From Microbotryum violaceum (taxonomy: Eukaryota), in contig CDLV01000008.1 of the NCBI GenBank assembly GCA_001244265.2, forward strand, positions 1,488,001 through 1,552,000: 64,000 nt of DNA, read 5' to 3'. The notes under the pieces were generated by a model. That model was not told where the DNA came from. It saw only the letters and a list, made by a program, of their open reading frames with translations, and made no database searches. The translations under genes and the position numbers were made by a program. The first letter of the stretch is position 1; every line of letters begins with the position of its first letter. Of the stretch, positions 17,330 to 35,464 are shown piece after piece.

Positions 17330-17714
17330 GCCGAGCACGTAACGCGGACTCCAACGAGCGGTGTTGATTGGACTCAGAGGTGGCTTGCACGCGGATACTA
17401 TCTAAGGCTCTGGTCTCGTTCACTCTCTCCTTCTTCTTTAACACACACTCAATATCTATCTCGCCCATTTGCCTGCTACAAGTTGATTGACCTTGGCGAT
17501 ACTCTATCTCACAATAGGACATCTATCAACGCCGTGTAGCTACAGCGAATCTTCATTCATTCATTGGTACTCCAAGTCCAAATCCACAACAGGGAGCAAA
17601 GATACTTGAAAACCAGGCAAGAGCGCCTAGGAAAAAAAAAGGGACAATATACAAAAAGTCACAAACGGGAACACCGAGAAAGGAAAATACTAAAACAAGG
17701 GGTCTTGGTAATTA
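17330..17714 (-). mobile_element. Diverged 3' UTR fragment of LINE family F
   Basis: gccgagcac.taacgcggactccaacg and gggagcaaagatact.gaaaaccaggcaagagcgcctag match 25734-25900. Confidence 0.8.
17362..17591 (+). repeat. Solo LTR (single-unit relative of 18452-18826)
   Basis: TGTTG...CAACA ends; shares gattgacctt...ctatctcacaatag; absent from the F copy at 25.7 kb; no TSD seen. Confidence 0.7.
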
Positions 17715-18451
17715 TTTTTTTTGTATGAAACTCATTGCTAATTTGCAAGACGAGAAAACCCCCTACGGAACTAAGGGAGATACTGCCCAGTATGCACGAT
17801 GATGACCACAACCGCCGCTTGATGCGTTGTAACTAGCAAGACAGACCAACCCGATAGATACATCCGAGTTCAAGTCCCCCCCACCCACGGTTGCTCCCTC
17901 CCAGAGACGAATGAAAGGAAGATTGAAGATAGTACACAAGGAATCAGGAAACGATGGAGGAATTGTTGGTGGTGGTACATGTGTTGTACAGGCGAATCGG
18001 ATCATAGTTGTACAGTTGAACCTTCTTCAATCTTTTGACTTCAGCCCCCCCCTGAGACCGCCATACTCCTTGAAGCCCCTTAATTCTTTGAGACGCGTCG
18101 AACAAGGCCTCCGATGGCACAAACATTCTGCTCAATCCGATCACATGGTCCAAAGGGGGGATATAACCCCCTGCGACCGCAGCAATCACATACCCCTTGT
18201 ACCCGTCTGCGCTGGGATCTCCACCGCGGATTCCAAACCCCTTTTCGGTTACCAAAGTCGGCCCCCCCTCGCGACCGCACGACCCCAGATCACCCCTATT
18301 CAATGACTGCAACTGCGAAACAGGCCTACTTCGCACAAAAACACACAATCCAGAGATTTTCGGGGAAAGTCACGGAGCATGTGACAGTCCATTGGACACG
18401 CCTCGGTCTGCAGCGCGGGCGGGTGGCCGACAACACCGGCGCGCGGCTGGA

Positions 18452-18826
18452 TGTTGTGGGAAATTAGTGGGGTCTGCGGTCCAGAGGGACTTATGGTCTT
18501 AGCAGTGGCGCGGGCGCGCGGGTGTTGTGCGGGGACCGGCAGAGGCGGCTGGTTGTTTACATGAGATTGCGTCTTTTTGGCCTAGCTGTTTTTCTCTCTT
18601 CTCCACCACGCACTCGATATCACATCTCGCCTAGTCGCTCTGTTACAGTCGATTGACCTTTAGCGACCCACTATCTCACAATAGGTTAGTTGAAATACAT
18701 TACTACGCACTTGATATCACATCTTGCCTAGTCGCTCTGTTACAGTCGATTGACCTTTAGCGACCCACTATCTCACAATAGGTCATCTATCGACGTCACG
18801 TAACTAGAGACGCTCCTACAATAACA
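18452..18826 (+). repeat. Solo LTR inserted in the LINE D1 3' UTR
   Basis: TGTT...AACA ends; TSD CTGGA at 18447-18451 and 18827-18831; absent from D2 and D3; internal duplication. Confidence 0.93.
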
Positions 18827-19472
18827 CTGGAGACAAGAGGCGGGTATACCTTCCGCAGGGGCCTTGCTTCCCTGCGGCGTACTTCCAATCTCGGAACGCA
18901 CACTTGAGTCCCATTGTACGTGCAGGTGGTTCCCAATCACTGCAGATACTGGGGAAAGAAGGAGCATGAGTCCCACGATGGTGATGTCATTGAGTGGGAC
19001 CTCGCTCGAGTGTGGATGTGTATGGCTGTTCAGTACCCGAGTCACCCGCCGCGCGGCCGGACTCCGAGCGAGCAGCAAAGCAAGGAGAGGCGAGCCACGC
19101 AGGCAGTTTGTGCCGGCCTTGAACAGGAGATCACGGAGTCGCTCGACCAAAAGAGGAGACAGACCCGGCCCTTGAGAGGAGTGGAAAACTCACGGCGGAG
19201 TCCAGGAGAGGGTCAAGGGGATCCGCTTTCGCTGTGTGTCATCGTGATGTGGCAGAAGCTCGAACCAAGGGCGACAATGCCCGCCGGCGCAAAGAACCCG
19301 AGGCTCCTGGGGCGTACGGAAGCCTATGAGGAGGAATGGCAAAAAGAGCGAGAGAAAACAGGTTCAGTATTCTGGCGTGTTTGGGAGACATTGGAGAGAT
19401 TGAGAAAGAGGGAAAGGGGACTTGTGATTTTTATTTTATTTTTGGTTGGGTAGGGAGGGAGCGCCGTCTACT

Positions 19473-34700: not shown

Positions 34701-35305
34701 CGTGCTGCTGCGGCGGGAGGAGATCCGGTAGAATTTGGTTCAAACGGGCGACATAGACCTTGGTAAAGATCTTGTAATCGCACTCGCGCAGGGTGATCGG
34801 CCGGTACGCCGAAAGTTCGGCGCGATCAGCATTCTTCTTGTGTCGCTTGAAGATGAGGCGCACGAGTCCTTGGCCCTGCTTGGGAGAGAGTGAGCCTCGC
34901 TCTATCATCACGTTGTAGGCCTTGGTCAGCACCTTGGCCCACGCCTTGGGTGCGGTCTGGTAGAGTTCGTAGGGCACGCCCGACGGTCCCGGCGATCGCC
35001 CCGGGTGCGTCGTCCCGATCGCGGCCACGACCTCGTCCTCGGTGATTGGTCGCTGGAGTAAGTCGTTCTGTGATTCCGAGAGTCGGCGCAGAAAGAGAGG
35101 ATCCGAGCGCGGGTCGTCGCAAGTCCGCGCCGCCCTGATCGGCGCGAGGAAATCGTCCCGAAGTCGGTCGACGCGGTCCGGGTCACGAGGCTCGATGTGG
35201 TAGAGGCGCTGGAAATGCGCCTGCGTGTGGTCAAGAGCGACATCAATGTCATGCGTTAGCTCTCCGTTGCTCAAGCGCAGTGCTGTGATCTTGGAGTCCG
35301 AGTTA
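31792..35305 (-). mobile_element. 5'-truncated L1-like LINE family E with an open RT ORF
   Basis: T-run at 31792-31801; ORF 32446-35328 aligns with D ORF2 from about [10 protein letters not shown] onward; lacks the endonuclease. Confidence 0.93.
32446..35305 (-). pseudogene. ORF2 (RT + CCHC) of LINE E, N-terminally truncated but uninterrupted
   Basis: SPGPSG, YRPITL, QHGF, GQGDP, FADD, CLVC...[10 protein letters not shown]. Confidence 0.93.
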
Positions 35306-35371
35306 AACCAGGGTGTTCCGTCTGGCACTTTTAGTACGCTTTCTCGGAACGGAAATCCATCAGCGAATACA

Positions 35372-35464
35372 GGTTGTGTGTCCGAGTGGTCTAAGGAGTG
35401 TGATTAGAAAGTTCTTATCATCACATCCTCTTTGAGGGCGCAGGTTCGAATCCTGCCGCAATCG
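35372..35464 (+). tRNA. tRNA-Ser(AGA) with a ~10-nt intron
   Basis: Acceptor GGTTGTG/CGCAATC plus discriminator G; A box TGTCCGAGTGG; anticodon stem TGTGA/TCACA around TTAGAA[agttcttatc]A; long variable arm CCTC/GAGG; T loop GGTTCGAATCC. Confidence 0.93.

Follow-up and report, generated by a model that had tools for sequence, protein, structure and literature searches.

How seven copies of long interspersed nuclear elements (LINEs) came to lie head to tail, with the last 5' end facing a tRNA gene, is the question raised by a 64-kb stretch of the Microbotryum violaceum genome (contig CDLV01000008.1, positions 1,488,001 to 1,552,000; hereafter the window). The stack was mapped by self-BLAST, by tblastn with the window's own open reading frames (ORFs) and by reading out the sequence at each junction. 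These analyses bore out the original prediction of seven head-to-tail minus-strand LINEs of three families (D, E and F), which fill positions 17330-35304. All seven LINE pieces of the window were found in this one stack and none in the ~22 kb of other repeats. The analysis supported the view that LINEs of three families integrated here repeatedly, in one orientation and in a targeted manner, and so produced the stack. The target may have been the poly(A) tails of resident copies, so that the stack would be a self-targeting LINE array with integration resembling that of Zepp and Zorro3; from our analysis of the junctions, we give this reading an even chance.

The members of the stack, their features and the adjoining tRNA gene are as follows:

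17330-17714, minus strand: F', an F-family fragment matching F at 25734-25903, truncated at its 3' and 5' ends and without poly(A); a repeat ending in a hairpin cuts it off at 17329/17330, and ~12 nt of filler lead up to the T8 of D1.
17364-17591, no strand: partial insertion in F' resembling a long terminal repeat (LTR), 76-79% identical to 18597-18809 and replacing ~30 nt of F sequence.
17715-25577, minus strand: D1, the longest copy (7.86 kb), with a T8 tail, a 3' untranslated region (3'UTR) of ~1.4 kb, ORF2, ORF1 and an 86-nt leader.
18452-18826, no strand: solo LTR in the D1 3'UTR, with TG..CA ends and a 5-bp target-site duplication (TSD), CTGGA; D2 and D3 have no insertion at this site.
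19473-23513, minus strand: D1 ORF2, 1346 aa, intact, with apurinic/apyrimidinic endonuclease (APE; Exo_endo_phos) and reverse transcriptase (RT; RVT_1) domains.
23513-25491, minus strand: D1 ORF1 region, in two frames (24340-25491 and 23513-24493).
25578-26879, minus strand: F, a 5'-truncated copy of the third LINE family, with a T13 tail; it matches longer F copies as far as 26877, after which comes GG filler.
26872-26879, no strand: left copy of the E' TSD, TGGTCGGG, made up of 6 nt of the F 5' end and 2 nt of filler.
26880-27118, minus strand: E', 239 bp from the 3' end of an E-family copy, with a T13 tail, 98.3% identical to E.
27119-27126, no strand: right copy of the E' TSD, TGGTCGGG, followed by GGG (27127-27129) and then the T10 of D2.
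27130-28936, minus strand: D2, a 5'-truncated D copy of 1.8 kb, with a T10 tail and AACG filler at its 5' end, 99.1% identical to D3.
28937-31791, minus strand: D3, a 5'-truncated D copy of 2.86 kb, with a T18 tail and GAA filler at its 5' end.
31792-35304, minus strand: E, a 5'-truncated E-family copy of 3.5 kb, with a T10 tail and an open frame containing RT and zf-RVT.
35305-35371, no strand: spacer of 67 bp between the E 5' end and the tRNA gene, unlike any stack member or filler.
35372-35464, plus strand: tRNA-Ser(AGA), containing an intron of 10 nt and ending before a T5 terminator (Rfam, ARAGORN).

The poly(A) tails appear on the plus strand as T8-T18 at the start of every member except F'. 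Truncation at the 5' end was found in five of the six tailed copies and in six of the seven members overall. The stack was compared with contigs of four short-read runs, in which longer copies of the F family diverged after 26877 in all four runs and longer copies of the E family exactly after 35304 in three of the four. Because the longer copies leave the window sequence at these positions, the two truncation points are real and the spacer between E and the tRNA gene comprises exactly the 67 bp of 35305-35371. No piece spanning the whole stretch was present among those listed from the short-read contigs of all runs.

The division into three families is real. D and E are ~50% identical in ORF2, and the 5'-most ~330 nt of F specify the C-terminal end of an ORF2 belonging to a third Microbotryum group, ~40% identical to D. 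Pfam analysis of D1 ORF2 placed Exo_endo_phos at residues 7-241 and RVT_1 at residues 553-785, and identified RVT_1 and zf-RVT in E, which starts at the position of D1 residue 400 and possesses neither APE nor ORF1. No Pfam match to an RNase H domain was obtained in D1 ORF2 or in E. The best solved relative of D1 ORF2 was human LINE-1 ORF2p (E 5.8e-29), R2 following at ~1e-13. As judged from these sequence features, D, E and F are L1-type LINEs, APE-bearing and RNase H-less. The database search with the LINE ORF2 returned 99 relatives, 94 of which are annotated proteins of three named Microbotryum species (the best 98% identical). D1 ORF1 lies in two frames, a C-run at 24360 is one base longer in other copies, and D3 carries one frameshift, at 31359, relative to high-copy contigs. 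The ORF1 stop and the ORF2 start of D1 overlap as TAATG (23511-23515); in some other LINEs such an overlap serves as a termination-reinitiation signal. The end of D1 ORF1, CRRCGFVGHIDSC (24343-24400, minus strand), contains a single CCHC-like knuckle with CX2CX4HX3C spacing, and Pfam gave no match on either of the two D1 ORF1 pieces.

All six internal junctions run exactly from a 5' end to a poly(T), with all seven copies on the same strand. Each poly(A) had been described as abutting the next 5' end without host DNA; this stood for the junctions, with a filler of 2-12 bases and no host DNA in between, and failed for F', which has no poly(A). The fillers differ from copy to copy (AACG after D2, GAA after D3, GG after F, ~12 nt after F', the 8-bp TSD plus GGG after E'), and no filler resembles the start of the spacer beside the tRNA gene. 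A TSD of at least 6 bp or host DNA was absent at five of the six internal junctions. The resident tails retain at least 8 T (T8, T13, T10, T18 and T10), which equals or exceeds the 8 bp of the E' TSD.

The remaining junction records an integration into an existing copy. E' is flanked by TGGTCGGG on both sides, for which the probability by chance is ~1e-4 per element, and the right copy is foreign to the E family, since E reads on in another way at that point. The site before the arrival of E' read F...TGGTCG, then GGGGG, then the T10 of D2, and E' integrated 3 nt from the junction. Flanking repeats of at least 6 bp were absent from all other members. A TSD lying within a resident copy, here F, was thus seen at one of the six internal junctions.

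At the other end, the stack stops beside a tRNA gene. The region 35372-35464 (plus strand) matched Rfam RF00005 with 42.2 bits against a gathering score of 29, and ARAGORN with introns allowed identified, at these same coordinates, a tRNA-Ser(AGA) whose intron measures 10 nt, whereas it was missed in the default mode without introns. The A and B boxes and the T5 terminator were found by eye, and the gene, which is the only tRNA gene in the window, looks functional from its sequence. E and tRNA-Ser face each other 5' end to 5' end at a distance of 67 bp at this single locus, as the original prediction had it. Its claim of a TRE5 geometry also held: in the available part of PMC3159450 the 5' end of TRE5-A faces the tRNA gene's 5' end from upstream, and the accessible section of PMC5006619 (Table 1) gives distances of 31-98 bp upstream of the tRNA for tRNA-targeted LINEs. 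The open frame of E (32446-35403, minus strand) stays free of stops across the whole 67-bp spacer and for another 32 nt antisense to the tRNA gene, probably by chance.

Junctions of the same kind recur outside the window. Six other junctions consisting of a truncated 5' end, 1-9 letters and a poly(T) were found among D, E and F in the contigs of three of the four runs (X1, X11 and X16, from three studies); none of the six is present in the window, and one, the joint at 21215 in X16, has a GGGGG filler like that of F. Annotated proteins carry comparable joints. Among the 99 database relatives, 8 annotated Microbotryum proteins from three named species contain a truncated ORF2 that restarts after a complete ORF2 C-terminus, and in 4 a LINE 3' end is followed by K4-K6 and by a truncated ORF2 within 10 residues. 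Distinct gene models with stack junctions amount to 10 of the 99 (P0007, P0008, P0009, P0011, P0020, P0027, P0030, P0059, P0069 and P0088; 947-2207 aa). The start of P0088, MMNVFYKKKKK, is the translation of the E 3' terminus. Read from their translations, these ten models, which read through two stacked LINE copies, are annotation artefacts that record stack junctions, some of them beginning within the final codons of the upstream LINE and crossing its poly(A) as a K-run.

Relatives were also sought in metagenomes, where 80 of 208 loci were kept. Only one locus (L001) carried a close relative, an E-family element 85-90% identical in DNA. This element (2800-9022) is near-full-length and comprises an ORF1 frame and APE, an RT from which the equivalent of window 33678-34606 is deleted internally, and A10; its ORF1 frame (806 codons) gave no Pfam match. 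No tRNA was detected in the 12.4 kb of the locus (Rfam E up to 1, intron-aware ARAGORN), with none within 2.9 kb of the element's 5' end, so that 0 of 1 close relatives with context sits at a tRNA. On one side of the element lies a Copia ORF starting at position 64 of the gag profile, and on the other an ORF that runs into the poly(A) and has sub-threshold Pfam matches to the Copia gag N-terminus (E 0.07 and 0.11); BLASTP of this N-terminal piece against a Copia element of the window gave no significant match, and no TSD of at least 7 bp was found. The predicted reading frames suggest that a Copia gag gene was probably the site of integration. At only 21-33% identity, the remaining 79 metagenome loci contained 6 tRNAs in 749 kb, none of them in a TRE5-like position, a result that says little at such a distance. 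Viral contigs gave 17 pattern matches and 0 relatives.

The order of arrival was considered from insertions and divergence. The two copies farthest from the tRNA had been thought to carry solo LTRs and the nearest one an unbroken ORF. The LTR of D1 proved to be a clean solo LTR and that of F' only a partial one. The frame of E is open, although the copy is incomplete, and the intactness of ORFs gives no order of copies because the far copy D1 also has an unbroken ORF2. D1 and D3 show 20 synonymous versus 16 non-synonymous codon differences in 475 codons, and the letters that depart from D1 are identical across all four runs. This split, together with the shared letters, indicates that D1 belongs to another subfamily and is not simply older, and the distance between D1 and D3 is largely subfamily divergence. 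High-copy contigs differ from D1 at 20/712, 36/2322 and 59/3450 positions, from D3 at 4/1394 and from E at 2/424 and 1/457, so that their distance is similar for D3 (0.3%) and E (0.3-0.7%). Polarisation of the differences between E and E' with the L001 element as the outgroup left ~3 usable sites, which are too few for dating. F'-type sequence is present elsewhere as a longer copy (joint 17702 to 25936), and no joint skipping exactly one stack member occurred among the 13 listed from the contigs of the four runs. The case for an age gradient along the stack is weak, and the proposal that older copies were pushed outward was not supported, given the subfamily divergence of D1 and D3 and the similar closeness of D3 and E to the high-copy contigs.

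According to the explanation favoured here, LINEs of the D, E and F families would integrate by target-primed reverse transcription into or beside the poly(A) of a LINE already present, whose orientation they would share. On the primer strand, the T-run would be nicked, probably inside the tail, and would prime on the poly(A) of the incoming RNA. In most cases, an early stop of reverse transcription would yield a 5'-truncated copy, a few untemplated bases would be added, and the end would be joined to the remainder of the old tail. E would be the founder beside the tRNA gene, to which the others were presumably added at tails on its 3' side, and E' would have entered the 5' end of F, 3 nt from the tail of D2. 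The position of E at 67 bp from the tRNA gene would then be a single event, either chance or a preference of the founder for regions upstream of RNA polymerase III (Pol III) genes. A nick inside a T-run would give a duplication that consists only of T and cannot be seen; the five of six junctions without a visible TSD fit such duplications but do not prove them. Integration into tails is favoured because five of the six junctions lack a TSD or any host base while the tails retain at least 8 T, because such junctions recur in contigs and gene models, and because the mechanism has been published for Zepp and Zorro3.

Several observations weigh against this explanation and speak for an alternative in which Pol III transcription sets the site of integration. 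E' was not primed from a T-run, since its nick lies 3 nt before the run and fits a fixed distance from the tRNA gene at least as well as it fits a tail. No A/T run is present in the 5' flank of E or at the target of the L001 element, which implies that this family needs no poly(A) in order to integrate. The stack ends 67 bp from the window's only tRNA gene, in the orientation of TRE5, and by our own arithmetic a random LINE 5' end would fall at this tRNA distance and orientation with a probability of ~2e-4, on the basis of 134 tRNAs (PMC4469406), a genome of ~25 Mb (judged from 22-31 million contig letters per run), an interval of 62 bp and one orientation, a value that rises to maybe a few percent if islands of transposable elements (TEs) gather at tRNA genes. 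LTR insertions occur in the outer members F' and D1 and in none of the five inner members, which is the order expected if the outer copies are older; there are two insertions only, and by our arithmetic this placement would arise by chance with a probability of ~0.2. In the corresponding alternative, ribonucleoprotein particles of D, E and F would be tethered at the tRNA transcription complex and nick ~67-70 bp upstream, every newcomer settling between the tRNA gene and its predecessor, with older copies pushed outward and E the youngest. The two mechanisms thus predict opposite orders: E must be the founder if newcomers enter resident tails on the 3' side, and the youngest if the tRNA directs integration. 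In addition to the match with TRE5-A in distance and orientation and to the apparently functional tRNA gene, the only tRNA in the 64 kb is where seven insertions from three families end, E' is compatible with a nick at -70 made when F was the proximal copy, and high-copy contigs differ more from D1 than from D3 or E. Against this, with a distance set by the tRNA one would expect bases of the spacer or of the preceding copy to be duplicated or split, as happened when E' made its 8-bp TSD, whereas D2, D3 and E left no TSD, host bases or piece of a previous copy on the tRNA side and would each have required a nick exactly at the filler/spacer boundary. Moreover, the distance of D1 is largely a matter of subfamily, the F'-type sequence exists elsewhere in a longer form, and the L001 element has no tRNA within 2.9 kb of its 5' end. 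In the accessible part of a table on tRNA targeting in a 2018 review (PMC5911963) the non-LTR entries are all dictyostelid, and no link between LINEs and tRNAs appears in the available text of PMC4469406 or bioRxiv 2022.08.03.502670. Of the Pol III targeting proposed originally, repeated targeted insertion by three families stood, but nothing shows the tRNA or Pol III to be the target, and we regard TRE5-like targeting as a serious but less likely rival. With a similar probability, D, E and F would represent the first tRNA-targeted LINEs outside the dictyostelids, a basidiomycete L1-type lineage that evolved TRE5-like integration independently, ~67-70 bp upstream of Pol III genes and precisely enough for copies to pile up free of host DNA, and that left an outward-ageing record at one tRNA gene.

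Junctions in which a 5' end, filler and poly(T) follow one another without gap or TSD would also result if the reverse transcriptase added a few bases at the end of one RNA and jumped to the poly(A) of another LINE, which would produce concatemers of several truncated copies in one or a few events. LINE reverse transcriptases are capable of template jumping, fillers made of G-runs occur more than once (F in the window, joint 21215 in X16), and D2 and D3 are 99.1% identical. However, at least E' was a separate event, as its own TSD indicates, the solo LTR of D1 is missing from the equivalent site of D2 and D3, the members differ in divergence, and the position of the tRNA gene would be left unexplained; template switching as the origin of the stack is accordingly improbable. 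Far less probable still is an ordinary nest of TEs, or an assembly artefact, in which the members accumulated or were mis-joined without targeting. The stack does lie within a 40-kb TE island, and the runs compared with it consist of short-read contigs. On the other hand, all seven copies occupy one strand and all six internal junctions are exact, the TSDs of E' and of the solo LTR are biological signatures, and similar junctions were found in independent runs and annotated genomes. Integration into resident tails thus remains the explanation that we prefer.

The window is of eukaryotic, fungal character. The main regions of the window are:

First ~17 kb: Copia-type LTR elements.
~17 kb to ~40.4 kb: the LINE stack and the one tRNA gene, then other repeats.
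From ~40.4 kb on: ordinary genes, encoding an amine oxidase, methyltransferases, an Mcp5-PH protein, a primase small subunit and an AMP-binding enzyme.

The TE island around the stack measures 40 kb, the genes from 40.4 kb onward are single-copy, and no telomere repeats were seen in the window. One full-length Copia-type element (8888-14047) carries gag-protease-integrase and RT ORFs on the minus strand and is probably a recent insertion; its 386-bp LTRs (8888-9273 and 13662-14047) are 99.7% identical. Two more Copia RT regions lie at 1-2336 and 4579-8492. One repeat is found on both sides of the block of stack and tRNA gene (14518-16883 and 38459-40415, 98-99% identity), one part being inverted (14739-15786 versus 39510-38459) and another direct (16120-16883 versus 39652-40415). 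The repeat that truncates F' (17290-17329) has a perfect hairpin, CATGTGTAAGGATAT/ATATCCTTACATG, ~10 nt short of its terminus and would in this resemble a Helitron 3' end. A purine-rich low-complexity tract (36045-36200) lies ~600 bp downstream from the tRNA gene and includes an A34 run (36126-36159). This run was considered as the tail of a plus-strand LINE and rejected, being a low-complexity, purine-rich run without LINE homology.

No description of mixed-family LINE stacks or of an association between LINEs and tRNAs in Microbotryum was found in the main-text literature that was accessible. The available part of the M. lychnidis-dioicae genome paper gives 392 LINE copies and 134 tRNAs without linking them (PMC4469406), and a preprint on anther-smut TEs has 0 occurrences of the term "trna" in its main text (bioRxiv 2022.08.03.502670). 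Stacks of this kind illustrate a way for LINEs to survive in a fungal genome that is compact and GC-rich while sparing its genes, and they affect counts of TE load in non-recombining regions as well as annotation quality, at least 10 of the 99 public gene models being stack read-throughs. If the link to the tRNA were true, it would mean that Pol III-directed integration of LINEs arose a second time, independently, and with the many sequenced strains of this organism the evolution of safe-haven targeting could be tested directly.

Comparison with known systems revealed both shared and divergent traits. TRE5-A and other dictyostelid elements, as described in the accessible parts of the sources, share with the present LINEs an ORF2 with APE, RT and zinc finger in addition to ORF1, and the position 67 bp upstream with 5' end facing 5' end; the difference is that here a single locus is concerned, one close relative is not at a tRNA, and footprints of repeated insertion are lacking. 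The telomeric elements HeT-A and TART likewise form head-to-tail non-LTR arrays, to the extent covered by the text available, but the stack described here is internal. Zorro3, an L1-clade element of Candida albicans, integrates at poly-A tracts and is flanked by poly-A on both sides without TSDs, according to the available section of PMC3956500. F', D1, F, D2 and D3 are alike in this, F' having lost its own tail. E, E' and the L001 element differ in having no A-run at the 5' end, where E is flanked by the spacer and E' by its 8-bp TSD. Zorro3 targets genomic A-tracts near promoters, and arrays are not reported in the part of the source available. The likeness to the Zepp elements of green algae (Chlorella, Coccomyxa and Chlamydomonas) comprises arrays in the same orientation, mostly of 5'-truncated 3' ends, L1-type elements with APE and RT, and a similar cluster size, Zepp-like clusters measuring 1.5-42 kb (PMC3446292) and, in the accessible text of PMC8226300, Zepp arrays forming by insertion that targets existing copies. 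In contrast to Zepp, the LINEs described here live in a basidiomycete, one array combines three families of only 40-50% identity, and the stack adjoins a tRNA gene, whereas Zepp arrays mark the centromere or telomere.

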